Source: Trichormus sp. ATA11-4-KO1
Lineage (GTDB): Bacteria > Cyanobacteriota > Cyanobacteriia > Cyanobacteriales > Nostocaceae
Length of the DNA stretch: 64,000 nt
Assembly: GCA_019358915.1 (NCBI GenBank)
Contig: JAHHIM010000001.1
Coordinates: 1 to 64,000 of the forward strand
Direction: 5' to 3'
Shown: positions 1,303 through 36,199 of the stretch, in pieces
How positions within the stretch are numbered: position 1 is the first letter of the stretch
Layout: each line of letters starts with the position of its first letter
Notes under the pieces: generated by a model
What the model saw: the letters and a program-made list of their open reading frames with translations, nothing else
Told to the model about the DNA's origin: nothing
Database searches by the model: none
Position numbers and translations under genes: made by a program

Positions 1303-2742
1303 ATGCAAACTCTGTTGAACGATCGCTATCAAGTTATCCGCACATTGGGTGCTGGTGGGTTTGGTGAAACCTATCTAGCTGAGGATACCTATATGCCTTC
1401 AAAACGCCGTTGTGTGGTGAAACAGCTAAGACCAATTCAAAATAATCCCCAGATTTATCAACTGGTGCAGGAACGGTTTCAACGAGAAGCAGCCATTTTA
1501 GAAACACTCGGCGGCGCAACTGACCAAATTCCGGCTTTATATGCTTATTTCGTTGCCAATGGGCAATTTTTCTTAGTTCAGGAATGGATTGAAGGCGAAA
1601 CTCTGACGACAAAAGCGCAAAAGCAAGGGTTATTTAGTGAAGGTGCTGTCCAAGAGATATTGGTAAATTTGTTACCTGTCCTAGAGTATGTCCACTCCCA
1701 GCACATTGTTCACCGCGATATCAAACCAGATAACATCATGGTGCGTCATAGTGATGGTAAATCGGTGTTAATTGATTTCGGTGCAGTGCGGGAATCAATG
1801 GGAACAGTATTCAATTCCCACGGCAATCCTACCAGTTCAATTGTCATTGGTACACCTGGGTATATGCCGAGTGAACAAGCAGCCGGCAGACCAGTCTATT
1901 CTAGTGATTTATATAGTTTAGGTTTGACAGCGATTTATTTGCTCACTGGGAAACAGCCACAACAATTAGAGTCAGATTCCCAAACAGGTGAAATTGTGTG
2001 GCGACAGTATGCTAGTCAGATCAATCCTACATTAGTAGAGGTGCTAGATCGAGCGATCGCCTACCATCCACGCGATCGCTTTGCTTCTGCTAAAGCCATG
2101 TTAGATGCTTTGCAGAGCATAGCAAACCCGATTCCACCGACGCAACCGTTCTTCTCCCACCCGCCTATCGTACAAACACCACCACCGCCAACTATTCCTG
2201 TTAATCGCCAGCCTACCACTCAAAATCATAGTCGCAATAGCATCCTCATGGGTGGTTTAATTGCAGGTGGGTTAATTGGTGCATCTGTAATTATTAGTCA
2301 GGTGTTCAGACCATCTCCTCAACCTGTAGCAGACCAAAAAGTTATACCCACAGTTACAGAAACTCCTGTTGTGGCTTCACCTCCAGTCATCCAGAAAAAT
2401 ATTACATCCCCGGTAATCCAACAAACTATATTGCCATCACCGACAGTTAGCGAAACAACAAACAATTATTTCTGGCTATCCGAAAGACCTGTAACAAATA
2501 CTGATTTGGACGACAAAGACGGTTTTGAGCTAGATATTATGCGAAATTCGATTTATGCTCGTCACGGTCGTCGCTTTGATACTCCTGGCTTACAAGCATA
2601 TTTTAATAACCAACCTTGGTATAATCCTATATACTCACCCAAAGCATTTCCTCCTAAATTATTGTCAAAATTAGAGCAGCGTAATGCTGAATATATTAGT
2701 AAATATCAAGACCGTAACAAAAGAAGACATTTTCCCAAATAA
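1303..2742 (+). CDS. Hanks-type Ser/Thr protein kinase with TM helix and C-terminal YARHG domain
   Basis: LGAGGFGETY, VVKQL, HRDIKPDN, DFG and GTPGYMPSE motifs; TM segment ILMGGLIAGGLIGASVII; RNSIYARHGRRF. ATG at 1303 preferred over TTG at 1279. Confidence 0.92.
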   Translation: MQTLLNDRYQVIRTLGAGGFGETYLAEDTYMPSKRRCVVKQLRPIQNNPQIYQLVQERFQREAAILETLGGATDQIPALYAYFVANGQFFLVQEWIEGETLTTKAQKQGLFSEGAVQEILVNLLPVLEYVHSQHIVHRDIKPDNIMVRHSDGKSVLIDFGAVRESMGTVFNSHGNPTSSIVIGTPGYMPSEQAAGRPVYSSDLYSLGLTAIYLLTGKQPQQLESDSQTGEIVWRQYASQINPTLVEVLDRAIAYHPRDRFASAKAMLDALQSIANPIPPTQPFFSHPPIVQTPPPPTIPVNRQPTTQNHSRNSILMGGLIAGGLIGASVIISQVFRPSPQPVADQKVIPTVTETPVVASPPVIQKNITSPVIQQTILPSPTVSETTNNYFWLSERPVTNTDLDDKDGFELDIMRNSIYARHGRRFDTPGLQAYFNNQPWYNPIYSPKAFPPKLLSKLEQRNAEYISKYQDRNKRRHFPK

Positions 2743-2775
2743 TGGGAAATTTTAACGCCAAGGGTACGCAGAGGT

Positions 2776-3846
2776 TTGATGTGGGTCAAGGCTAGGGAAT
2801 CAATGGGAACAGTGTTTAATTCCCAAGGTAATCCTACTAGTTCGATTGTCATTGGTACGCCTGGGTATATGCCGAGTGAGCAAGCAGCCGGCAGACCAGT
2901 TTATTCTAGTGATTTGTATAGTTTAGGTCTAACAGCGATTTATTTACTGACAGGCAAACAACCGCAAGAATTAGAGACAGATTCACGGACTGGGGAAATT
3001 ATTTGGCACAGATACGCCCTAAGTGTAAGTCCCACATTAGCAGGAGTGATAGATCGAGCGATCGCCTATCATCCACGCGATCGCTTTGCTTCTGCTAGAG
3101 AAATCCAGGAAGCTTTACAATTGGGGTCAGTCACTGTTCCACCCACAGTAGCTTATCAGTATCCACCAGTCGCAGCAGCACCGCCTCCTGCCATACCTCA
3201 AAACACAATTGCCGTTAGTCCAGGGACTTCCCCACCACCTGCTCATCCACCTAGTGGACAAAAAGGAATTTTTCTTGGCAGTCTCATTGTCGGTGGTTTG
3301 ATTGGTGGAGCTATTATCGTTGGTTTTGCCCTCAATAGACCACCACAACCAATGGTTCAATCAATCAATTCATCCAGCGAACCTTCGCCAATTCGCAACA
3401 CCCCGGAAGATATCACACCACCTGTAAATTCCCAAACTTCCACAAATTCAGCACCCTCTACATCTGAAACTCCATCTGTTAAAATACCTATTTCAACACA
3501 GCCAGCCACCGCTAGACCTTCACCAGCACAAGCTGTGCAAAATTATTATGCAGCTATTAATCAGGGTCAGTATCAAGCTGCATGGAATCAACTATCTCCC
3601 AGCCTGCAAGATAATCAACGTCTTCACCCCAATGGTTATCTTTCTTACCTTGACTGGTGGGGAGGAAAAGTAGAAAGCGTTGATGTAACACAAGTTAATG
3701 TAGTACAAGCAAGTACAGAAACAGCCACTGTCGATGCCAAATTTCAATACTTGATGAAAAATGGGAGACAAGTTCCTGGTGCTGTGCGCTTCTCACTTTT
3801 GTGGGATGCTGAAAATAGCAGATGGATTGTGAGTGCTGTTAAATAG
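2776..3846 (+). pseudogene. N-terminally truncated Ser/Thr kinase paralog (C-lobe, Pro-rich linker, TM, extracytoplasmic domain)
   Basis: Starts at RESMGTVFNSQGNPTSSIVIGTPGYMPSEQ, just after the DFG position of the upstream kinase. Gly-loop, catalytic Lys, HRD and DFG are absent, and only ~35 bp separate it from the previous stop. Confidence 0.75.
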
Positions 3847-4018
3847 CATCAAGACAATTTACCTGTGGACACTCTTACTCTCTGTGCCTGGAGCGTGAAA
3901 ATTTCACACTTCTCTTCAACCACGCCACAGATTAAGCTCAAGATAGGGGACATAAACTGTCTCTGACTCGTCAGAGTATCTGATGTACATTTGGAAAGGG
4001 TGAATACTCGTACTTTTC

Positions 4019-5749
4019 ATGACAACAACGCTGCTGAACAATCGCTATCAAGTGATTCAAGTACTCGGTGCTGGTGGGTTTGGCGAAACCTTTCTGGCAG
4101 AAGATACCCACATGCCTTCTCGCCGTCGCTGTGTCATCAAGCAACTTAAACCGATAGCTAATGACCCCAAAACCTACCAAATGATTCAACAGCGCTTTGA
4201 GAGAGAAGCTGCGACTTTGGAGTATCTGGGTGAAAGTAGTGACCAAATTCCCAAGTTATATGCCTACTTTTCCGAGAATGGGCTATTTTATCTAGTCCAG
4301 GAATGGATTCACGGTCAAACCTTGACAGATGTTATTGCAGCCAAAGGTACTGTAAATGAAACTGCTGTTAGGGAAATTCTTTTGAGTCTGCTATCAGTAT
4401 TGGATTATGTCCACAGTAAAGGCATTATTCATCGGGATATCAAACCGGATAATATAATTCTGCGTTCCCTTGATAACAAACCAGTTTTGATTGATTTTGG
4501 TGCAGTTAAGGAAACTATCCGTTCTGTAGTGAGTTCTCCCAATTATCCTACACGCTCAATGGTAATTGGTACACCTGGATATATGCCTACTGAACAAGCT
4601 GTAGGACGACCAGTCTACGCCACTGACATCTACAGCTTAGGCTTAACGGCGATTTATCTCCTGACTGGCAAACATCCATCAGAACTGCAAACACATCTAC
4701 AAACCGGAGAAATTTTGTGGCAGGAGTATGCGCCTGATATATCCGCTCATCTGACCACAGTACTCAATCAGTCCATCAAACCCCATGCAGGCGATCGCTA
4801 TAGTACTGCCAGTAAAATGCTATATGCTTTAAAGTCTGCTAGTGATATTTCTCCCCCATCTTCCATCGCTACTCCCACAATCAGCCTCAGTCCTGCCAAT
4901 GCAGCATCAACTCAGCAAACCAAAGCAATATCTTCCCCTCAAACCATTCCAGCCAGCAACTGGCAAAAGCCTACTTGGATTATCGGCAGTTTACTAGTGG
5001 GTGGCTTAGTTGGTGGGGTAGCAATTTCTAGCATTACTCGTCAACCACAATCTGAAACACCCATTACTACGTCATCGACACCCCCACCAGCGACAAACTC
5101 CACTACCCCAGAATCTCCGCCTTCGGAACCTGCTGAGACACCAGTTGCGTTACTACCTACCCCCAGGGTATCAGCACCACCCCAGATACAAACTCCAGAA
5201 ACTGAACCAGTCCTAGAGTCTAACATCCCACCACCACAGCCAGAAACTCCAGCAGCATCTTCTTCAGAGCCAGTAGTACCAGCACCAGCACCACCACAGC
5301 CAGAAGCTCCCGAACCAACCCAAGATTCAGCTCCTAGCAATACCAAAACTCCCAGTGTGCCAGCTTTTCCGACTGGCACTTCTGAAAGTGCTGTCACAGC
5401 AGCTTTGGGACAGCCTAGTAAAATCTCCCAAGGGTTATGGAATACCCGTGCTTTTCTCTATCAGTTAGAAGATAATGTTGACCTGGGGTACTTATTTGAC
5501 CGAAAAACGGGAATTCTTCGCCAAACCGAGGTAGCTTTTGACCAATCTGTTTCCCCGGAAGTCATGCAAACGACATTACAGGGAAAACTTGGTGGTAATG
5601 CTACTAGCAATATCCAGTCAGGTCTGCAAAAAGTCTACAACCGCCAAACTCGGCGATACTCTTTTAATGTTGGCAAATTAAAAGGTGTAATTGAACGCAA
5701 CAACAAGGATCGGATTTACATAGGCATCTGGGATGCTGATTTGCATTAA
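4019..5749 (+). CDS. Hanks-type Ser/Thr protein kinase, membrane anchored
   Basis: Full kinase motifs (LGAGGFGETF, HRDIKPDN, DFG), TM segment, Pro/Glu-rich linker and C-terminal domain. Confidence 0.92.
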   Translation: MTTTLLNNRYQVIQVLGAGGFGETFLAEDTHMPSRRRCVIKQLKPIANDPKTYQMIQQRFEREAATLEYLGESSDQIPKLYAYFSENGLFYLVQEWIHGQTLTDVIAAKGTVNETAVREILLSLLSVLDYVHSKGIIHRDIKPDNIILRSLDNKPVLIDFGAVKETIRSVVSSPNYPTRSMVIGTPGYMPTEQAVGRPVYATDIYSLGLTAIYLLTGKHPSELQTHLQTGEILWQEYAPDISAHLTTVLNQSIKPHAGDRYSTASKMLYALKSASDISPPSSIATPTISLSPANAASTQQTKAISSPQTIPASNWQKPTWIIGSLLVGGLVGGVAISSITRQPQSETPITTSSTPPPATNSTTPESPPSEPAETPVALLPTPRVSAPPQIQTPETEPVLESNIPPPQPETPAASSSEPVVPAPAPPQPEAPEPTQDSAPSNTKTPSVPAFPTGTSESAVTAALGQPSKISQGLWNTRAFLYQLEDNVDLGYLFDRKTGILRQTEVAFDQSVSPEVMQTTLQGKLGGNATSNIQSGLQKVYNRQTRRYSFNVGKLKGVIERNNKDRIYIGIWDADLH

Positions 5750-5777
5750 AAAAAAGCCTGCACAAGCAGGCTTTTTT
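5750..5777. terminator. bidirectional intrinsic terminator
   Basis: AAAAAAGCCTGC-ACAA-GCAGGCTTTTTT hairpin with A/T tails between the convergent kinase gene and rplL. Confidence 0.8.
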
Positions 5778-5836
5778 ATAGTCCCTAATCAAATTATGTG
5801 AATGACAAGGACTTCAAATCTGTGGCGCAATCTTGA

Positions 5837-6229
5837 TTACTTGACAGTTACTTTACCGCCAGCTTCTTCAATCCGCTTCTTGGCATCTTCAGCAGCATCC
5901 TTCGCAATAGCTTCCTTGATTGCCTTAGGCGCAGCTTCTACCATATCTTTGGCTTCTTTTAGACCTAAACCAGTCAATTCCCGGACAATCTTCAGTACGG
6001 CAATCTTCTTGTCAGCAGGAACGGATTCTAGGATAACGTCAAACTCAGTTTTCTCTTCTACTGGTTCAGCAGCAACAGCAGCAGCACCGGGAGCCATCAT
6101 CATCATACCGCCAGCAGGTGCAGCTGCGCTCACGCCAAAAGCTTCTTCAATTTGTTTGACTAATTCAGATGCTTCCAGCAAAGAAAGGGTTTTTAATTGT
6201 TCGAGAATTTGATCAGTTGTAGCAGACAT
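5837..6229 (-). CDS. rplL: 50S ribosomal protein L7/L12
   Basis: [10 protein letters not shown]...[24 protein letters not shown] signature; operon context. Confidence 0.98.
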
Positions 6230-6327
6230 TGATATAACTCCTGTAATGTTAATTTTGTTGTTGTCTACCCCAAACTTGATTTAAGGGTAAACTTCAGCCG
6301 GCAAATTCTGGTGTAGTTTGGCAGATT

Positions 6328-6879
6328 TTATTCAGCAGCACTTTCAGTGCTGTCGCCTTGCTCTTTATCAACCCTAGCTTGCAAAGCACGGGCCAAAGAA
6401 CCAGGAACTTCGTTGATACTCACGGCTAACTGAGTAGCCACAGCATTGATAGCTCCGGCAATTTGCGCGATGAGTTGTTCTTTAGATGGCAAGTCTCCCA
6501 GAGCCTTGACATCAGGTTCTTTGAGCAGGCGACCTTCCATAACGCCACCACGAAGTTCTGTCTTCTTGGTAACTTTCTGGAATTCTTGATAAGCCTTAAT
6601 TGCCGAGGAAAAATCCTCTTTAACTAGTAAAAAAGCCGAAGCACCATTGAGCAATTCTGAAAGTGGTTGCCAGTTTTCATCACCGTCAATAGCAATGCCC
6701 ATTAAGGTGTTCTTAGTTACCTTACAAACAGTGCCAGTCGGACGCAGTCGGCGGCGTAAGTCAGTGATTTGAGCAACTGTTAGCCCCTGATAGTCAATGA
6801 CTAGTGCCAAAGTTGACTCACTCAAAGTTTCTTTGAGGTCAGCTACTATCTCTTTTTTATCTTCTAGGGTTCTACCCAT
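6328..6879 (-). CDS. rplJ: 50S ribosomal protein L10
   Basis: [24 protein letters not shown] and LPSKEQL motifs; operon context. Confidence 0.97.
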
Positions 6880-7204
6880 ACTTATTTCACCTCCAAGGGC
6901 AAAATCATAAATTTTCGCTAAGTAAAACCTTCCCCAATCTATTCATTAAGACTAGAATCAGTGTTACTTCCTGCTTCAACTAGAGCCGCGCGGCGGTTTT
7001 TATCCACAGGCATAAATTCGGGAGTAGCTCTCCCTATTTTTGCTAAATTCAGCACCGGATTTAAATCTCTTTTTGGTCTTAACTTGTGTGTTTTACTCTG
7101 TTCGATTAAAAACAATAAACCCCAGCTATTTTGGCCGGGGTTTCACAAAAAGACTCATTATACCTCAGTAATCAAACCACAAAGGGTAATACTTTAGGCA
7201 ATTA

Positions 7205-15904: not shown

Positions 15905-16193
15905 GTTGCAATTCCTCAAAAGTCATGAAGCCGAAAGACCCCAATTTTTACATAAGCTTTAGCTCACTTCAAGACCATGAAGAATTATTCTTCAATAAAA
16001 GTCTGGTTCATTAACCATATATTGGCAAATTTCTGAGGTGGACATTCGCAATCATTAATGGACATAACACCCAATTACGATGATGAAGCAGAAAGAAAAA
16101 TTCTGGAGCATGTCCAAAAAGCTTGTACTCAAGAAAAATGAAGATAAATAATCAATAATAGGATAATTATGTGACCATTTTTTGTTGCTATAT

Positions 16194-27906: not shown

Positions 27907-28644
27907 ATGAAGATAATGCTGAGAAAATATTACACTACCAATCAAGCCCGAATTGTTACTGCTTTAATTTTGACTGGTATTCTATCTGTTGGTAGCGGGT
28001 TAACACCCATGAAAAGCGCCACAGCAAATTCTGCCAACTTCACTCCAGAAATAACCAATGAAGTTTTAGCAGGAAATCACAACTTAAAGCGCTTACCCCC
28101 TCCAGTAGCCAATGCGGTGCTGCGAGATTTAGCCCGCAGACAGAACATTTCCACCAGAGAACTGAAAATTATTGATTATCGTCAACAGACTTGGCGTAAT
28201 GGTTGCTTGGAACTCCCTCAACCCGATGAATTCTGCACCCAAGCATTAGTACCAGGTTGGCGAGTTGTCGTATCTAATAATAGACAAAACTGGATTTATC
28301 ATACTAATCGTAATGGGCGTTCTTTACGGTTAGCTTCAACAAATACTTCCACGAATCCCTCAGCAAATCTACCTCAATCTGTCAGAAATGCGGTTTTACA
28401 AGCAGCTTCTAAAAGTTTACAACAACCAATTTCTCGGTTAACTATTACTCAAGCTCAACAGCAGACTTGGAGAGATGGTTGTTTGGAATTGGGAAATATC
28501 AATGAATTATGTAGTGCTGCATTGGTACCAGGTTGGCGGATAGTTGTTAGCGCTGTTGATCAAACATTGGTTTATCACACCAATCAAACAGGCTCCGTAG
28601 TTAGGCTGAATGAAAAGGCTAGCCAAATCAGTTATAAAGACTAA
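27907..28644 (+). CDS. secreted hypothetical protein with two Cys-containing internal repeats
   Basis: Signal-like N-terminus; repeats LPxxVxNAVL...QQTWR[ND]GCLEL...C..ALVPGWR[VI]VVS...YHTN..G. Confidence 0.8.
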   Translation: MKIMLRKYYTTNQARIVTALILTGILSVGSGLTPMKSATANSANFTPEITNEVLAGNHNLKRLPPPVANAVLRDLARRQNISTRELKIIDYRQQTWRNGCLELPQPDEFCTQALVPGWRVVVSNNRQNWIYHTNRNGRSLRLASTNTSTNPSANLPQSVRNAVLQAASKSLQQPISRLTITQAQQQTWRDGCLELGNINELCSAALVPGWRIVVSAVDQTLVYHTNQTGSVVRLNEKASQISYKD

Positions 28645-29282: not shown

Positions 29283-31823
29283 TTGACTATGAAGGGGAAA
29301 ATAAAAAACAATCAGGAAGATAGCCCAGTGGCTAAACATCAATCCAAACAGCGCTCACAAAAACACGTCTCTAGCACAGGGACGGAGCTTACTGAAAACT
29401 CCTTTAGGATGCAACTGCAAGAATTGCTGAAGCAGCAAAAATATCGGCAGGCATTGGAAGAAATCAAAAAAATTCAACGAACGCACCCTAATATCGAATT
29501 TACTCCCAAAGCATCAGAGATTTGGTTGCTGCGGGGTCAGCAAGAATTCCAAAAACAAGATTTTAAACAGGCAGAAAAATCCTTTGCCCGCGCTCTGGAA
29601 TTTGGTTTGGTTGGAGAAGTTCACTACTGGCAAGCTAGATGTTTGCTGGAGTTGAACCAATTAGATACTGCACTGAATTTGCTCAGAAATGCTTTTGAGG
29701 CAGGCAACCTCATCAAAGACTACAGCATCTGTTATCTCAAGCTCCTATTGCTCAAAGGAGATACCGCCACAGTTGAACAGTTAATTAACGAACAATCCAA
29801 ACGATTTAGCGCTGCCCAACTCCACTGGGTACGCGGGGTGCTGGCTCTCAAGCATGGAGAACACCAAGCCGCTTTGACATCTTTTCAAAAAATTAAGCGC
29901 CCGATTACACCAGGAGATTTACCAATTGCTTGGATTATTTACAGCCAGCAAGTAAGTGGTAATTGGAACGCAGCAGCTAATCTTTTGGGGTTGCAGTCAT
30001 CTAGATATACCTTCGGCAAACCAAAGTATTTGGAACATCCAATTTTAGAGCGATTGGCAACTGCCCAACAGGCTCATACTGGAATCCCACCCCTAGAAGC
30101 CCGGAATTGGGAACGAGAAGATCCAGTTATCCAAGATGCACTATCAGCTTTGGCGATTGTACAGCTAATTGATAGTGACAACCATCATGATGCTGCCCAT
30201 GTGTTGCTACAGATGTCCAAGCGTTCAACTCGTTTCTCAGAACTAAAGAACCTGCGAAAATCACTATTTACTCTTGCAGGTCAACAAGCACTGAATCAAG
30301 GAAAAGCAGAATGTGCGGAGTTATTTTGGCAGCCTTTGTTAACAGAGAAACCCTTCAATCCTCAGTTGGCAGTCAACCTGTTAGAAGTCTTAGACGCTAA
30401 TGATTCTGACAAAGAACGCCCCCGCGTTGTCACTCAATTTTTGCGGTGGTTAGAACAGGAAGGAAAACAAAAACCGCAAGAATGGCCAGATACACGCTTA
30501 AAACCAACCTTAGCTCATCTGCACTGCTGGATGGCAGATGCCTACATGGCAATAGGTCGGGAACGCGCCGCTTTCGGAGCATTGCAACAAGCAGAACGCA
30601 TTTGTCCCACATCGCCAGAGTTACTGGGGCGTAAAGGACTAGTTGCGGCAATGGAGGAAAATTATACTGAAGCGATCTCACTGCTTACCCAAGCACTAGA
30701 AGGTGGATGTCAGTATGTCGAAGTTTACGGCATTTTGCTGCGATGTTGGGAGAAAGTAGGAGACAAACAAGCACGTAATGAAGCTCGGCGGAAATTTGGC
30801 AAGCACTTTGGCGACCTGAGTATTGAAACTGAAGTGGAAATATTGCCTTGGGTAGATGCTCTATCTACGTTAAATTATCCCTTATTTAGCCGTCTGGTGC
30901 AGACAGAAGATAAAAAAGATCCTGCTATACGTGCTTGTCAGATATTCGTGAATGCAGTCCAAAGTCCGCCCAATTCCGGCGGTCGAGTTTCATTACACCA
31001 AAAAGCAGCATTTGTTGCATGGGACACTCTCCTGAAAAAATTATCTGGTCAAGAACAAATTCCTGTATTGCAGGCAATTTCTCTTTCTATCCACCTCTTC
31101 GCCAAACGTGAAAAAGGCATCGCCGCTTTAACAAGTCAGTATCTACAAAAATTATTCAACTTATCAACAGAATACCCAGAAGCCAGAGTTGCTCATTTAG
31201 TTGTTTTAGCCGTCAAAGAAAATAATCCCCAAAAACTAGAACCTCCTCTACGTAACTACCTCGACACGATGCCACAGCCAGGAAATGCTCTGGCAAATAT
31301 TCAACTCCAGGTGCGCCGTTTTGGCGAGATTACAACCCTTGTACCTGCCCTGTCAGAAGCACTACGTCGGGAACCCCAAAATCCTTTGCTACTATTAGCT
31401 AGAGCTACTACCTACCAGGTTGATCACCCAAACTATGAACAATTCAAGCAACAGGGATTTGAATTAGCCCGTCGTTTACAAGATGTCAAAGCATTGCAAG
31501 CATTTCGGGAAGAACAGGCTTTTCTCTCCGCTCAAGAAGTAACTAACATAATGCCAGACCCAGACAATTTTGACAATTTGGATATATCAAATATTGATGA
31601 GTTATTAGAGGGGATGCTTAAAAAAATGTTGGGTAACAAAATGTCCAAAGCTGAGTTTGAACGGATGCTTCCAGAACTCAAGCAAATGATGTTAAACAGT
31701 ATGCCTAACTTCGATGAAGATGAGGAAGAAGAGCCAGACTTAGACTTTATCTTTAGAAACTTACCACCTACATCTAAGAAACGAAAGGGTAGGAGAAAAG
31801 GAGGTTTTCAAGAATTATTTTAA
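29283..31823 (+). CDS. large TPR-repeat protein (846 aa; true start may be GTG 29328)
   Basis: Multiple TPR-like units (e.g. WLLRGQQEFQKQDFKQAEKSFARALE, LLGRKGLVAAMEENYTEAISLLTQALE); acidic then basic C-terminal tail. Confidence 0.85.
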   Translation: MTMKGKIKNNQEDSPVAKHQSKQRSQKHVSSTGTELTENSFRMQLQELLKQQKYRQALEEIKKIQRTHPNIEFTPKASEIWLLRGQQEFQKQDFKQAEKSFARALEFGLVGEVHYWQARCLLELNQLDTALNLLRNAFEAGNLIKDYSICYLKLLLLKGDTATVEQLINEQSKRFSAAQLHWVRGVLALKHGEHQAALTSFQKIKRPITPGDLPIAWIIYSQQVSGNWNAAANLLGLQSSRYTFGKPKYLEHPILERLATAQQAHTGIPPLEARNWEREDPVIQDALSALAIVQLIDSDNHHDAAHVLLQMSKRSTRFSELKNLRKSLFTLAGQQALNQGKAECAELFWQPLLTEKPFNPQLAVNLLEVLDANDSDKERPRVVTQFLRWLEQEGKQKPQEWPDTRLKPTLAHLHCWMADAYMAIGRERAAFGALQQAERICPTSPELLGRKGLVAAMEENYTEAISLLTQALEGGCQYVEVYGILLRCWEKVGDKQARNEARRKFGKHFGDLSIETEVEILPWVDALSTLNYPLFSRLVQTEDKKDPAIRACQIFVNAVQSPPNSGGRVSLHQKAAFVAWDTLLKKLSGQEQIPVLQAISLSIHLFAKREKGIAALTSQYLQKLFNLSTEYPEARVAHLVVLAVKENNPQKLEPPLRNYLDTMPQPGNALANIQLQVRRFGEITTLVPALSEALRREPQNPLLLLARATTYQVDHPNYEQFKQQGFELARRLQDVKALQAFREEQAFLSAQEVTNIMPDPDNFDNLDISNIDELLEGMLKKMLGNKMSKAEFERMLPELKQMMLNSMPNFDEDEEEEPDLDFIFRNLPPTSKKRKGRRKGGFQELF

Positions 31824-31888: not shown

Positions 31889-32185
31889 ATGACTGACCAC
31901 TACGAACAATTAGGAATTTCTCCAGGAGCAACAAGCGCCCAAATTAAAGCGGCGTATCATGCCAAGCTGCGTGAATTTCCCGCTCATACTTATCCAGAAG
32001 AGTTTAAGGCAATTCGAGGAGCTTATGAGGCAGTTCGTAAAGGAGAAACAACTCAACATGAGGATTTCTTAAAATTTCGTCCACTAGAAGCAGAACTGAA
32101 TCCAGAGATATTAAAACAGGTGCGAGAAAAAGCGCTTGCTCAACTAGAAGTTAGCCTGGATGATTTAATTCGTGCCACATTTTAA
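31889..32185 (+). CDS. minimal J-domain-like protein lacking the HPD motif
   Basis: DHYEQLGISPGATSAQIKAAY...EEFKAIRGAYEAV follows J-domain helices I-III; the HPD position reads FPA. Confidence 0.85.
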   Translation: MTDHYEQLGISPGATSAQIKAAYHAKLREFPAHTYPEEFKAIRGAYEAVRKGETTQHEDFLKFRPLEAELNPEILKQVREKALAQLEVSLDDLIRATF

Positions 32186-32296
32186 ATAATTCGTAACGGG
32201 CTACGCTCTAAGCAAAGCTATGCCGCAGGCTTTACGTAATTCGTAATTGTTAGTTACTGATTTTTCTAATGTCCGCTAACTATTGACCAATGACTA

Positions 32297-33064
32297 ATGA
32301 CTAATGACAAAGAAGCTTTATTTGCCAAATTTCTAGATTATTTACACTCAGAACAACCACTCCCTGAATATCTGGGTGAACCACCAGAATCCGCTAATTC
32401 CTTTGACCCCTATCAAATGGTGGCAGAATGGACTGCCCTGCGCCATGAAGTTAAGCAACAGGGTAAACTATTGCGTTCTACTCAAGATGCTCTTGTGCAA
32501 GCATTGGAAGTAACTCGCGCAGATAAAGAACAGTTGCAAATACGTCTGGAAGAAAGCCAAAAACAGGCATGGGGACAATTTGAGCAGCAGCAGGAGAAAC
32601 TGTTAAAAGATTTGCTGGGTATCCTGGATGCTTTAGATCAGGCTTGTACTTACTGGCAAGAGGAAATAGAAGCATTATCTGCTACCTCAAAACCAAAACC
32701 AGCAACACAAAAAAGCTTCTGGGAGAAACTAGGACAATGGTTTCCTGGCAAGGAAGCTCAGTCAATAGTGTCTGAAAAATCACTAACATCATCAGATTTA
32801 AGTGAAATTTTAACCAGCAACCAACAGGGTGTGGAGTTAATTAGGCGATCTCTTTTAGAGTTACTACAACAACGGCGTGTTGTTCCGATTACATCTATGG
32901 GAAAACCTTTTGATTCCCAGACAATGTATGCTGTGGGACGTGAGTCTAGAACAGATGTTACAGACAATACCGTAATTCAGGAAATAGTACGGGGTTATTT
33001 ATGGGGCGAACGCGTTCTGAGGGAAGCACAGGTGATTGTAGCGGCACAAGGGACTCTTGATTAG
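32297..33064 (+). CDS. GrpE-like nucleotide exchange factor
   Basis: LLKDLLGILDALDQA, GVELIRRSL, GKPFDSQTMYAV and EIVRGYLWGERVLREAQVIV motifs. Confidence 0.88.
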   Translation: MTNDKEALFAKFLDYLHSEQPLPEYLGEPPESANSFDPYQMVAEWTALRHEVKQQGKLLRSTQDALVQALEVTRADKEQLQIRLEESQKQAWGQFEQQQEKLLKDLLGILDALDQACTYWQEEIEALSATSKPKPATQKSFWEKLGQWFPGKEAQSIVSEKSLTSSDLSEILTSNQQGVELIRRSLLELLQQRRVVPITSMGKPFDSQTMYAVGRESRTDVTDNTVIQEIVRGYLWGERVLREAQVIVAAQGTLD

Positions 33065-33113
33065 GGACGCTGGGGCTGGGGAAATTAGTGCAGTTTACTT
33101 TTAATGGAATTTT

Positions 33114-34874
33114 ATGAAAGCAGTTGGTATTGACTTAGGCACAACAAATTCCGAAGTGGCGATTGTCGAAAACGGACAGGTGCGGGTATTGCCAGGCGAA
33201 GATGGCGACTTAATTTTACCTTCCTGTGTGGGATTTAGCGATACGGGAAAACTACTAGTGGGGCGTGAAGCACTCCGTCAGTATGCAGCAGCACCTGAAC
33301 GTACCGTGAAGTCAATTAAGCGGTGGATGGGAACTGACCACAAAACCACTTTAGGAGACAAAGAATACTTACCTCACGAAGTTTCTGCTATTATTCTCCG
33401 CGCCCTGAAACAACGGGCTGAAAATGCTTTGGGAGAAACAATTACCCAAGCAGTGATTACGGTTCCAGCCTACTTTACGGACGCTCAACGGCAGGCAACT
33501 AAAACTGCTGGCGAGATAGCTGGTTTGGAGGTACTGCAAATTATCAACGAACCAACGGCGGCGGCTTTAGCTTATGATTTACGCTCCGAAGAGACGGAAC
33601 GAGTTGTAGTTTATGACTTGGGAGGTGGTACTTTTGATGTGTCGGTAGTTGAAATTACGGGTGAAGTTACAGAAGTACTAGCTAGTCATGGTAATAACCG
33701 CTTAGGTGGAGACGATTTCGACAGACTTTTGCAACTGCATCTGGCAGATTTATTCCGCAAACAGCATGGTGTCGATGTGCCAGATGATGCGGCTACCCAG
33801 GTGCGTCTCCTGAGAGCAGCAGAGCAGTTAAAAATTGACCTGAGTTCCCATGCTTTTGCCACAGTCCGGGAAGCCTTTTTAGGTAGTAAAGGCAAGACGG
33901 CACTACATCTGGAGACAGAAGTAGCACGAGCAGATTTTGAAAAATTGATTCGCCCACTATTGGCAGAAACCCTAGAGGCAATTGACCGCGCACTAACAGA
34001 CGCCAGCCTAGAACCCAATGAGATTGACCGGATTATCCTAGTTGGTGGTTCTACACGCATTCCTCTAGTACAACAAATGATCCAAGAGCATCTGGGACAA
34101 AACCCCACTGATGGCATTCAACCAGACCTTTGTGTAGCATTAGGAGCAGCTTTACAAGCTGGGGTACTGGTAGGTGAATCAGTGGATGCGATTCTTGTAG
34201 ATGTGATTCCCCATTCCCTGGGCATTGCTGCGGCTGTGCCTACACCAATGGGTATTATGCCAGGTTACTTCAGTGTGATTATTCCCCGCAACAGCGTTGT
34301 TCCCGTTTCTCGCTCTCATGTTTATTCCACTTTGTTTGATGAACAAGAAGTGGTAGAAATCGAAGTTTTTCAGGGAGAAAATGCGGTTGCTGAAGAAAAT
34401 GTTCCTCTAGGTTCCTTTAGAGTAGAGAACTTACCACCCAAACCAGCCGGAGGTATTGAAGTCGAGGTTCACTTTGACTTTGACCTAAATGGCATTCTCA
34501 CTGTCACCACTACTGAGAAAGGCAAAGGGCAACAAGGAACGCTAGTAGTAAATAATGCAGGTATCAAGAAACTTTCTAGCCATGAATTGAAGCAAGCAAG
34601 GGCAGATTTAGAGGCATTGTTTGACAGTGATGAAACAATTGAAATCTCAAGCGAAGAGACAAGCTCTGTAGTAGAAATCGCTCCAGAATTAGCAGCACTT
34701 TTAGACCGCGCGGGGCAAGCACTTCTTACGGTAGACTCTGAACAAGCTCTTGAATTACAAGACTTATTAGGACAGATTGAAAATGCGATCGCTAACAATA
34801 ATCCAGAACTACCCCAGTTAAAAGAAGAACTCTCAGATTTTCTTTACTACGCAATTTCCAATGAGTCAGAGTGA
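33114..34874 (+). CDS. Hsp70-family chaperone (divergent DnaK paralog)
   Basis: GIDLGTTNS, VITVPAYF, INEPTAAALAY, YDLGGGTFDVS, LGGDDFD and LVGGSTRIP motifs; substrate-binding beta domain present; lid region divergent and short. Confidence 0.95.
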   Translation: MKAVGIDLGTTNSEVAIVENGQVRVLPGEDGDLILPSCVGFSDTGKLLVGREALRQYAAAPERTVKSIKRWMGTDHKTTLGDKEYLPHEVSAIILRALKQRAENALGETITQAVITVPAYFTDAQRQATKTAGEIAGLEVLQIINEPTAAALAYDLRSEETERVVVYDLGGGTFDVSVVEITGEVTEVLASHGNNRLGGDDFDRLLQLHLADLFRKQHGVDVPDDAATQVRLLRAAEQLKIDLSSHAFATVREAFLGSKGKTALHLETEVARADFEKLIRPLLAETLEAIDRALTDASLEPNEIDRIILVGGSTRIPLVQQMIQEHLGQNPTDGIQPDLCVALGAALQAGVLVGESVDAILVDVIPHSLGIAAAVPTPMGIMPGYFSVIIPRNSVVPVSRSHVYSTLFDEQEVVEIEVFQGENAVAEENVPLGSFRVENLPPKPAGGIEVEVHFDFDLNGILTVTTTEKGKGQQGTLVVNNAGIKKLSSHELKQARADLEALFDSDETIEISSEETSSVVEIAPELAALLDRAGQALLTVDSEQALELQDLLGQIENAIANNNPELPQLKEELSDFLYYAISNESE

Positions 34875-34880
34875 GAAATC

Positions 34881-35354
34881 ATGAAATGTCCTGTCTGTGG
34901 TGCAGTTTATCGTCCAATAAAGGGGAGCAGAGTCGGGATTGAGCAGCATAATAAGCATAATAATGATTATAAGGAAGAAACTGCTACCATATCTGCCTCA
35001 TCTTCCCCATCTCCCTTACTCAGCACTGCTTCTTCCTCCCCAACTTGCAGACGCTGCAAAGTAGACTTGTCTGACTTGTTCCGTCTGCACGACCAAGCCA
35101 TCTGGTATCACAGACAAGCAATACATTTATTGACACAAGGACGTTATCCAGAGGCTGCAGCGCACAATAATCAAGCTCTAGTTTTGTATTACAGCAATGC
35201 AGACTTCCATACCTTGGCGGGTAAATTATCGGCATTGCAAGGAAAATGGAGAGAAGCAATCTCATCTTGGCAACAAGCACTCAAGTTTGATCCACAAAAT
35301 GTCATTGCTTCTAATTGTCTGCAAATGATTGAGCTAATGACAAAAAATTGTTAA
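34881..35354 (+). CDS. zinc-ribbon plus TPR protein
   Basis: CPVC and CRRC pairs followed by two TPR-like units ending WQQALKFDPQN; starts 6 bp after the Hsp70 stop. Confidence 0.8.
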   Translation: MKCPVCGAVYRPIKGSRVGIEQHNKHNNDYKEETATISASSSPSPLLSTASSSPTCRRCKVDLSDLFRLHDQAIWYHRQAIHLLTQGRYPEAAAHNNQALVLYYSNADFHTLAGKLSALQGKWREAISSWQQALKFDPQNVIASNCLQMIELMTKNC

Positions 35355-35689: not shown

Positions 35690-36199
35690 ATGACTTTTGA
35701 AAGAAAGGTAGCAGGAATCTTTAATATGAGCGAAACCACTTGGGAACGTCATGCCAATCCCTGGAGTGGGTGGACACGTATCATTACTGGGCTACCGTTT
35801 CTGATACTGGCTTTTTGGAGTCGAATTTGGCTTGGTTGGTGGGCACTGATTCCTATTGCTATCGTAGTTCTTTGGATATGGTTAAACCCACGCATCTTTC
35901 CTAAACCACGTTCAACCAACAATTGGGTTTCAAAATCGGTTCTAGGCGAACGAGTTTGGTTGAACCGTGACAAAATTTCAGTACCCCAGCATCATCGTCG
36001 TGTACCTAACATTCTCTCTGCTATTTCTGCTTTAGGTGGAGTTTTGGTGATTTGGGGCTTAGTTACTCTCAATATCTGGATTACACTGCTCGGAACCACC
36101 TCACACTACTCTGGCAAATTATGGTATCTGGATCGCATGGTTTGGCTTTATGAAGAGATGAAAGAGACAAACGCAGATTATCGGAGTTGGCTATATTAA
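35690..36199 (+). CDS. conserved membrane protein (DUF6653-like)
   Basis: WERHANPWSGWTR, WLNPRIFPKP, VLGERVWL and KLWYLDRMVWLY motifs; AGAGGAG SD. Confidence 0.7.
   Translation: MTFERKVAGIFNMSETTWERHANPWSGWTRIITGLPFLILAFWSRIWLGWWALIPIAIVVLWIWLNPRIFPKPRSTNNWVSKSVLGERVWLNRDKISVPQHHRRVPNILSAISALGGVLVIWGLVTLNIWITLLGTTSHYSGKLWYLDRMVWLYEEMKETNADYRSWLY

Follow-up and report, generated by a model that had tools for sequence, protein, structure and literature searches.

An accessory five-gene Hsp70 module of cyanobacteria with an FPAH loop in its J-like protein and glutamine at the position of DnaK Arg167

Introduction

The His-Pro-Asp (HPD) motif of J proteins and its contact with Arg167 (R167) of DnaK are regarded as the defining and indispensable trigger of every Hsp70 cycle. 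Here we describe an operon in which both sides of this contact read differently, located in what we call the window, that is, the whole stretch of 64,000 nucleotides that was analysed (positions 1 to 64,000 of the forward strand of contig JAHHIM010000001.1, assembly GCA_019358915.1, from the cyanobacterium Trichormus sp. ATA11-4-KO1). Its small J-like protein reads F30-P31-A32-H33 (FPAH) in place of Y-H-P-D, and its divergent Hsp70 has Gln142 at the R167 position. In the closest described system, DnaK-DnaJ-GrpE of E. coli, HPD occupies positions 33-35 of DnaJ, and in the part of the review PMC8215388 that deals with the interface, D35 bonds R167 and Q378 of DnaK, H33 bonds the backbone of L391, and P34 contacts P419. 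The D35-R167 contact, on which the original prediction for this locus was built, is well founded, given the allele-specific suppression described in the pertinent parts of PMC8215388 and PMC5519331, where DnaK R167H is cited as suppressing DnaJ D35N (Suh et al. 1998).

The operon comprises five closely spaced plus-strand open reading frames (ORFs) for a large TPR protein, the J-like protein, a GrpE-like protein, the Hsp70 and a Zn-ribbon/TPR protein (Table 1). With E. coli DnaK-DnaJ-GrpE (PDB 5NRO) it shares the three protein types, the catalytic and allosteric residues of the Hsp70 and, as modelled, the surface for the J protein, but it has FPAH instead of YHPD, Gln instead of R167 and the interdomain linker AILVD instead of VLLLD, and it adds two TPR proteins. 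This linker, a 24-residue deletion in lobe I of the nucleotide-binding domain (NBD) and an altered GrpE-signature region are, by alignment, features of the whole clade of the window Hsp70 that set it apart from E. coli DnaK, as do its scores under the NCBIfam DnaK equivalog cut-offs (567.8 against 648 for NF001413, and 564 against 822.55 for TIGR02350). The J-like protein, unlike DnaJ, is without G/F, zinc-finger and client-binding domains.

E. coli HscC with its partners DjlC/DjlB is likewise a short, specialised Hsp70 with a lobe I deletion and J partners of its own, and in a quick LG+G4 tree search it fell on the module side, although at a weak, open fork (Shimodaira-Hasegawa-like approximate likelihood ratio test, SH-aLRT, 90) and on a branch of length 2.03. 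HscC nevertheless keeps R167 and DjlC keeps YHPD, where the window has Gln and FPAH, and the neighbours of HscC are Sel1 and DUF1266 proteins, unlike those of the window operon. Moreover, HscC is thought to be GrpE-independent, according to the section of PMC8215388 devoted to it, while a GrpE-like gene forms part of the window operon. The DnaK1-DnaJ3-GrpE system of cyanobacterial type IV pili (McDonald et al. 2022, as summarised in a part of PMC12288463) also joins an Hsp70 to a neighbouring grpE of its own and to a J partner with TPRs, but that partner is a TPR-containing DnaJ homologue and not a 98-residue protein without HPD. We rejected an identity of the window operon with this pilus system, given that the grpE-dnaK pair of this genome lies on contig C9, where the canonical grpE adjoins a dnaK whose product has R167. 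The GAP1-N2 GTPase conflict systems (Kaur et al. 2020, in the portion of PMC7159879 concerned with them) resemble the operon in combining Hsp70 and GrpE with TPR or DnaJ-fused partners in patchy accessory loci; this theme does not fit either, since its hallmarks are a GAP1-N2 GTPase and FNIII-repeat proteins, and Pfam showed neither among the five genes. An anti-phage defence system was likewise rejected, as PADLOC gave only one weak Hsp70-type match (PDC-M61B, 33.5 bits).

A full-text literature search returned no description of the operon or of the FPAH/Gln pair, a result that holds for openly accessible texts, as subscription-only papers were outside its reach and may bear on it. By the account in part of PMC10410713, every sequence whose HPD was incomplete was discarded in a large survey of J proteins, and a 2026 review speaks, in the part at issue, of bacterial DnaK derivatives as "dark matter" (PMC13580251).

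Results

The loop of the J-like protein and the Arg167 position of the Hsp70

By direct reading, the Hsp70 of the window has GLEVLQIINEPTAA, with Q142 encoded by CAA, where E. coli DnaK reads GLEVKRIINEPTAA with R167, and the alignment of both proteins places Gln142 at the R167 position, exactly as predicted originally. The Hsp70 keeps K70, P143, D148, R151, N170, E171, T173, D194, T199 and D201 (E. coli numbering), besides D326, Q378, D393 and P419, so that R167 is the sole exception among the ATPase and allostery residues checked; with this exception, and with open reading frames, the expectation of intact ORFs and ATPase motifs was borne out.

The HPD motif is absent from the loop of the J-like protein, and the residues F30-P31-A32 (31976-31984) are exactly as first read; their register, however, had to be corrected. 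HMMER comparison with solved J domains gave two solutions, one gapless (F30 on Y32, P31 on H33, A32 on P34 and H33 on D35) and the other with a one-residue gap (P31 on P34, A32 on D35), and phmmer of the J-like protein against PDB J domains gave E values of 0.0018-0.8. We favour the gapless register because MAFFT aligned the J-like protein with its module relatives from other phyla without a gap across the loop, because H33 never varies over the 65 rows of the alignment of J-like proteins (A3; F30, P31 and A32 are conserved at 90% or more), and because it is H33, and not A32, that is modelled against Q142. Most likely, then, H33 is the equivalent of Asp35, Y-H-P-D has become F-P-A-H, and it is P31-A32-H33, rather than F30-P31-A32, that lies on H33-P34-D35.

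Conservation among cyanobacterial-type relatives

Among the 80 loci returned for the Hsp70, 14 hold orthologues of 69-97% identity, spread over Nostocales, Leptolyngbya-like lineages and one metagenome-assembled genome (MAG) of the Gloeobacterales. All 14 orthologous Hsp70s have Gln, and FPAH is found in each of the 12 of these loci where a J-like gene was found. The TPR, J-like, GrpE-like and Hsp70 genes are all present in 12/14, a count that includes the partial TPR copies in L012 and L016, and locus L015 ends, with its contig, 1 kb upstream of the Hsp70. In locus L019 (Cyanobacteria bacterium RI_101), there is an orthologous Gln-type Hsp70 with a Zn-ribbon/TPR gene; the 7 kb upstream of this Hsp70 showed none of the TPR, J-like and GrpE-like genes.

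Wider searches gave the same picture. The best 120 of 196 J-like homologues have FPAH in 118 cases and YPAH in two, with HPD in none, so the strain-specific decay that homologous operons with HPD and Arg would have indicated is not what is seen; among the 120 Hsp70 homologues listed, of 8000 scored, 119 have Gln and a single one (P0233) has Arg, and the linker reads DAILVDV or EAILVDV in 116/120. Such uniformity goes far beyond what chance or noise between strains would give. A metagenome scan with TPR alignment A4, seeded with diverged TPR lineages, yielded 18 loci, eight of them holding both genes, while a scan with TPR alignment A1 (first row G022) gave 180 pattern matches, with none confirmed. 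The order TPR, J-like, GrpE-like, Hsp70 is also found in the metagenome loci, and seven of the eight pairs combine [FY]PAH with Gln, the eighth (L143) combining FPAH with Arg (codon CGG). As the Hsp70 of L143 is 92% identical to P0233 and both carry Arg, this Arg is a real feature of their lineage. Altogether, in the 24 cyanobacterial-type loci where both genes could be read (the window, 12 of the 14 closest genome loci, L100, L101, L103 and eight metagenome loci), His stands at the Asp35 position in 24/24 and Gln at the R167 position in 23/24. The loop variants seen are FRCH (L103) and FPSH (L136, with the J-like gene only).

The ratio of nonsynonymous to synonymous substitution rates (dN/dS) is 0.13-0.28 for the J-like gene, compared with five orthologues, and 0.08-0.13 for the Hsp70, compared with three. 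Judged by these sequence comparisons, the two changes are old, have become fixed and are maintained by purifying selection, and the original assertion that the pair is not decaying is upheld by the conserved Gln and FPAH, the low dN/dS (0.08-0.28) and the intact frames.

The same module in other phyla and the Hsp70 tree

On inspection of loci outside the cyanobacterial branch, we found the same five genes, in the same order and on one strand, in ten loci from nine records (G022, L026, L027, L028, L029, L044, L047, L051, L061 and L075, of which L061 and L075 belong to one record). The carriers are Pseudomonadota, Binatota, Thermodesulfobacteriota, Myxococcota, Bacillota, Spirochaetales MAGs and a non-photosynthetic-looking member of the window's own phylum. 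L029 was added by a hidden Markov model (HMM) of the J-like proteins, with which nine matches in the 66 loci L026-L091 score above 100 bits, the other 55 reaching at most 46 bits. G022 came up as a weak match in a search of 400 genomes with the J-like protein, and it has the same five-gene operon, with the loop H-P-P-D and an Hsp70 reading GLEVVRI, that is, with Arg; a search for further relatives in its class returned only G022 itself (1/47 genomes). The Hsp70 gene of G022 (L123, G022:C201) has two N's at 7067-7068, directly after the GLEVVRI codons, and its product is without about 55 residues there, among them NEPTAA and the second phosphate-binding loop. Single N's occur elsewhere on the contig too, and the gap could be an assembly join or a real deletion.

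In the order of the loci given above, the loops read HPPD, HPPG, HTPE, HPPE, HPPS, HPPS, YTPE, HTPE, HPPS and HPPS. In the gapless register, the position of the canonical His is Pro or Thr in all of them, and the Asp35 position is Asp or Glu in five, Ser in four and Gly in one. These small J-like proteins are thus all without the canonical His, and yet Arg is kept in the Hsp70 of 10/10 module loci, as it is in all 66 Hsp70s of loci L026-L091; the other phyla combine PPD, PPE, TPE, PPG or PPS with R167, and only the cyanobacterial branch combines PAH with Gln. Since the modules of the other phyla are without the canonical His and keep Arg in every case, the loss of HPD predates the loss of R167, and the matched loss of both does not hold in the form in which it had been predicted.

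In a tree of 46 Hsp70s, the Gln clade holds 22 rows with an SH-aLRT of 100. Its sister (support 97) unites G022 with six Hsp70s of Pseudomonadota, Binatota, Thermodesulfobacteriota and Myxococcota. Gln and Arg modules together form a clade with a support of 95, next to which a Neomoorella sequence branches off. On the opposite side of the tree lie E. coli DnaK, the four DnaK paralogues of the window's own genome and Bacillota DnaKs. The change from Arg to Gln maps to the same stem branch as the change to His at the Asp35 position, and in this narrower form, Asp/Glu to His together with Arg to Gln, the idea that both sides changed together was sustained. Several other interface positions are altered on that stem as well, with Thr at DnaK 212, Val at 417 and Ile at 390. 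L143 is nested within the Gln clade, the tree needs at least two changes between Arg and Gln, and on this topology L143/P0233 is a lineage inside the Gln clade that returned to Arg with FPAH unchanged. At the position of DnaK D481, the Hsp70 of L143 (9674-11446) has Ser, where the other members of the clade have Asn.

Models of the J-like protein and of its complex with the Hsp70

The AlphaFold2 model of the J-like protein, built on alignment A3, has a mean predicted local distance difference test (pLDDT) of 78.1 and helices at 4-8, 16-29, 36-60, 72-86 and 90-97, with no equivalent of helix IV identified. The helix II-loop-helix III hairpin is present, and the top Foldseek matches in the PDB are all J domains, including 5nro_B, with probabilities of about 1.0, E values of 0.02-0.3 and template modelling (TM) scores, by target, of 0.49-0.68.

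The complex was modelled from Hsp70 alignment A2 and J-like alignment A3 together with ATP and Mg. All three runs gave an interaction score (ipSAE) of 0.70, where the best of three controls had 0.00, and the mark of 0.70 is reached by 116/157 solved complexes and 2/215 mismatched pairs, counts that are only a rough guide here because our own alignments were supplied and ATP and Mg were included. The pLDDT of the partners was at least 64 and the agreement of contacts between runs at least 32%. The canonical J site consists of lobe IIA of the NBD, the linker between the domains and the beta part of the substrate-binding domain (SBD-beta), and on this site the J-like protein is placed in contact with Hsp70 residues 141-142, 182, 185, 351-352, 360-362, 395-399 and 457-458, that is, 166-167, 212, 215, 381-382, 390-392, 417-421 and 479-480 of DnaK. 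The modelled contacts include P31-I360, A32-P397, H33-Q142 and H33-L352, with an expected error of 2.9 Å for H33-Q142. The model thus predicts that the J-like protein binds the J site of its cognate Hsp70.

The operon, its neighbours and its distribution

Table 1. Features of the operon in the window (positions are those of the whole stretch)
Feature	Position	Strand	Description
Large TPR protein	29283..31823	+	846 aa counted from TTG 29283; Pfam TPR_16, TPR_2, TPR_14
J-like protein	31889..32185	+	98 aa; Pfam DnaJ
Loop F30-P31-A32-H33	31976..31987	+	TTT CCC GCT CAT; in place of Y-H-P-D
GrpE-like protein	32297..33064	+	255 aa; Pfam GrpE (PF01025), 89.1 bits vs 25.8
Divergent Hsp70	33114..34874	+	586 aa; Pfam HSP70 (PF00012), 528 bits
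Gln142 codon	33537..33539	+	CAA; position of DnaK R167
Interdomain linker A359-I-L-V-D363	34188..34202	+	equals DnaK V389-L-L-L-D393; in modelled J contact
Zn-ribbon (CxxC...CxxC) plus TPR protein	34881..35354	+	157 aa; Pfam TPR_11, TPR_2

The J-like protein has a J-domain-like N-terminal half (about residues 3-60), matched by Pfam DnaJ (PF00226) over residues 3-51 with the very small margin of 28.6 bits against a cut-off of 27.8, and a conserved, family-specific C-terminal half (about residues 60-98), which is a non-J extension with an invariant final Phe in alignment A3. In the GrpE-like protein, whose gene keeps its position across the operon relatives, the GrpE domain forms the C-terminal 90 residues (best stretch 164-249) after a long, divergent N-terminal part, and the protein scores under all 23 NCBIfam GrpE equivalog cut-offs listed.

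The true start of the large TPR protein is uncertain, as its orthologues align only from about residue 16. Copies of its gene, some of them partial, lie directly upstream of the J-like gene in 11/14 genome loci, and the other phyla show the same arrangement. A TPR profile search found 68 representatives below 1e-30, diverged lineages included, none of which BLAST-matched the TPR protein of G022. The C-terminus (31700-31823) has an acidic run, then a Lys/Arg cluster and a short aromatic-hydrophobic end, and such an acidic-then-basic tail closes most full-length members of the family (for example ...RRTFMDL and ...KKRKPWYKL) and the protein of G022. This tail resembles a client-type peptide of Hsp70 and, as a speculation from its composition, could tether a scaffold to the Hsp70. 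The Zn-ribbon/TPR gene begins 7 nt past the stop codon of the Hsp70 gene and is found downstream of the Hsp70 in 9/14 genome loci and also in the loci of other phyla, with no BLAST match for its product in the shorter-Hsp70 loci L020-L024.

RNA-library contigs from relatives (90-99% alike) cover the operon in 30/30 bins in libraries X1, X2 and X4 and in 18/30 in X6; this cover consists of contigs only, to which DNA may have contributed, and uncovered X6 bins carry no meaning, so that it does not count as demonstrated transcription of the operon. The spacer between the J-like and GrpE-like genes (32186-32296) contains a dispersed repeat sequence: in the bin 32125-32327, the contig depth is 3135 (X1), 2520 (X2), 166 (X4) and 677 (X6), compared with 15-100 in neighbouring bins, many contigs have loose ends at 32187-32317, and a short tandem run of TGACTAA-like heptamers lies at about 32283-32305. 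Upstream of the operon, 27907-28644 (plus strand) encodes a 245-residue protein without a Pfam match, whose N-terminus is signal-like and in which a Cys-containing unit of about 90 residues (...W R x G C L E L ... A L V P G W R ... Y H T N ...) occurs twice, and downstream, 35690-36199 (plus strand) encodes a DUF6653 membrane protein (Pfam, 224.8 bits).

The genome of the window has four full-length canonical DnaK paralogues, all of which keep Arg, and 14 Pfam DnaJ matches, of which 12 have HPD, the exceptions being the J-like protein of the window and a 765-residue frame on contig C50. The latter match (15947-16132, locus L158) reads ...QLPRREY... at the loop, and its frame may encode a cyanobacterial division protein of the ZipN/Ftn2 type. 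Of 400 other genomes sampled evenly across the phylum, 10 have strong matches (E below 1e-20) to the J-like protein over its full length, and seven of these 10 fall among the 45 sampled genomes of the window's own family, the numerous weak matches of this search being ordinary J domains. The module is therefore accessory and patchy, and it is possibly mobile. One J-like/Hsp70 homologue pair (P0007/P0125) is annotated on a Nostoc plasmid. In two close relatives, insertions separate the GrpE-like and Hsp70 genes: that of L012 (3.8 kb, 3210-7000) holds a same-strand caspase (Peptidase_C14)-TPR protein of 646 residues and an opposite-strand Uma2 endonuclease, and in that of L016 (5.2 kb, 1816-7000) the genes lie on the opposite strand and comprise weak HSDR_N-like matches, DUF4276 and an AAA_21 ATPase; in both cases, conflict-type genes have landed inside the operon.

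Discussion

We suggest that the operon of the window represents the cyanobacterial form of a conserved accessory Hsp70 module of five genes. Its J-like protein keeps the helix II-loop-helix III hairpin and most likely docks on the usual J site of its own Hsp70. The whole module family has given up the canonical His of HPD, and the cyanobacterial branch alone has gone on to exchange Asp/Glu of the J-like protein for His33 and Arg167 of the Hsp70 for Gln142, that is, a carboxylate-guanidinium pair for a neutral imidazole-amide pair. This would be a lineage-specific re-pairing of one contact within an already dedicated Hsp70/J-like/GrpE-like cycle, which probably serves a special client recruited via the two TPR proteins, and we do not take this re-pairing as the event that separated the system from DnaK/DnaJ. 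Taken as a whole, this explanation appears to us about equally balanced between right and wrong. In detail, the analysis shows the sequences with their conservation, the operon, the place of the changes on the tree and purifying selection, and from these and the model we infer that the J-like protein may bind at the J site, that H33 and Q142 may be functionally coupled, that the J-like protein may stimulate the ATPase of its Hsp70, and that the system may be orthogonal and have a client of its own.

The re-paired contact is chemically plausible by analogy, because the suppressor pair D35N/R167H also consists of an amide and an imidazole, with the sides swapped. In both cases, as far as the relevant parts of PMC5519331 and PMC8215388 describe the laboratory pair, the two positions changed together and a salt bridge would have given way to an amide and an imidazole, but in the window the imidazole belongs to the J-like protein and the amide to the Hsp70; moreover, the window pair is natural and fixed in a clade, in a loop that is also without His33 and Pro34. 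Orthogonality of the family to the housekeeping network is plausible from the sequences, since the module brings a GrpE-like factor of its own, lacks the canonical His and has a variant linker, and insulation from DnaK/DnaJ, if real, more likely arose in the whole module family than via Q142. The stronger claim, that the pair triggers ATP hydrolysis without the His, Pro or Asp of HPD and without R167, through a His-Gln contact incompatible with housekeeping DnaJ/DnaK, we consider rather unlikely.

Several points weigh against the re-pairing of a single contact, and most of them would be expected if the two changes were uncoupled, with Arg to Gln and Asp/Glu to His fixed independently on the long cyanobacterial stem. 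Possibly, Gln would then tune the internal clamp between NBD and SBD, His would serve another contact, and their closeness in the model would be functionally meaningless. The co-change is one event on one branch, and hence the covariation sought in paired operons, although near-complete in count (24/24 for His and 23/24 for Gln), is without statistical weight. L143 pairs FPAH with an Arg Hsp70, and P0233 also has Arg, so Gln is not obligatory with the FPAH loop. As Gly or Ser stands at the Asp35 position opposite a retained Arg in 5/10 of the module loci of other phyla, the two sites can vary independently and are not strictly coupled. The changes at DnaK positions 212, 417 and 390 on the same stem point in the same direction. 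In addition, R167 also works inside the Hsp70, in the clamp from D481 to R167/I168 described in a section of PMC8215388, so that what Gln142 tunes could be allostery and not the J contact; L143 differs at the D481 position, too, with Ser for Asn. Against independent fixation stand the near-invariance of both residues afterwards (His in 24/24 loci; Gln in 23/24 loci and in 119/120 homologues listed), the fact that the residues replaced are exactly the two known to contact each other, the contact between H33 and Q142 in the complex model, and a chemistry that mirrors the D35N/R167H suppressor pair, as that pair is presented in the pertinent part of PMC5519331. On balance, we hold uncoupled changes to be somewhat unlikely.

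The complex model also calls for caution, because its score may come from a memory of solved J-Hsp70 complexes such as 5NRO and the confidence in the partners is modest. The Pfam DnaJ match is barely over its cut-off, and the Foldseek E values are only 0.02-0.3. A second explanation, that the J-like protein, being without the His and Pro of HPD, occupies the J site or binds a TPR protein without triggering hydrolysis, would make it a scaffold, a lock or a competitor that excludes housekeeping J proteins, with the client or the TPR proteins driving the cycle. Known HPD-less J-like proteins such as Pam16 are regulators and not stimulators, and this precedent counts for such a role, as do the absence of the canonical His throughout the module family and the conserved non-J extension with its invariant terminal Phe, which takes up half of the J-like protein. 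Moreover, the part of the review PMC8215388 that covers HPD changes states that stimulation is abolished by them in all systems tested. The modelled contacts nevertheless match the stimulatory geometry, linker and SBD-beta included, the dedicated GrpE-like gene implies an Hsp70 that cycles through ADP states needing exchange, and the catalytic and signal-transmission residues are all kept, for which reasons we regard a non-stimulating partner as distinctly improbable. Finally, decay of a dnaK/dnaJ duplicate that lost its co-chaperone interface, which the absence of both HPD and R167 and the patchy distribution (10/400 genomes of the phylum, 7/45 of the own family) might suggest, is extremely improbable and was rejected, as it is contradicted by intact frames with a dN/dS of 0.08-0.28, by replacement residues that are invariant over Nostocales, Leptolyngbya-like lineages and the Gloeobacterales MAG, and by a five-gene order conserved across phyla.

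In summary, the canonical His is missing from an entire conserved module, and in one of its branches both partners of the Asp-Arg contact have been exchanged as well. Natural intermediates of the exchange are available, and the Arg-revertant lineage L143/P0233 and the relatives with HPPD and Arg would serve as such. This makes it testable which parts of the J/Hsp70 interface carry the signal and which only set the specificity for the partner, while the two TPR proteins suggest a specific client. If the His-Gln pair did prove to be a working one that is incompatible with housekeeping DnaJ and DnaK, it would represent a genuinely orthogonal chaperone pair, useful as an insulated chaperone part for engineering, and the HPD-R167 trigger would be one solution among several.

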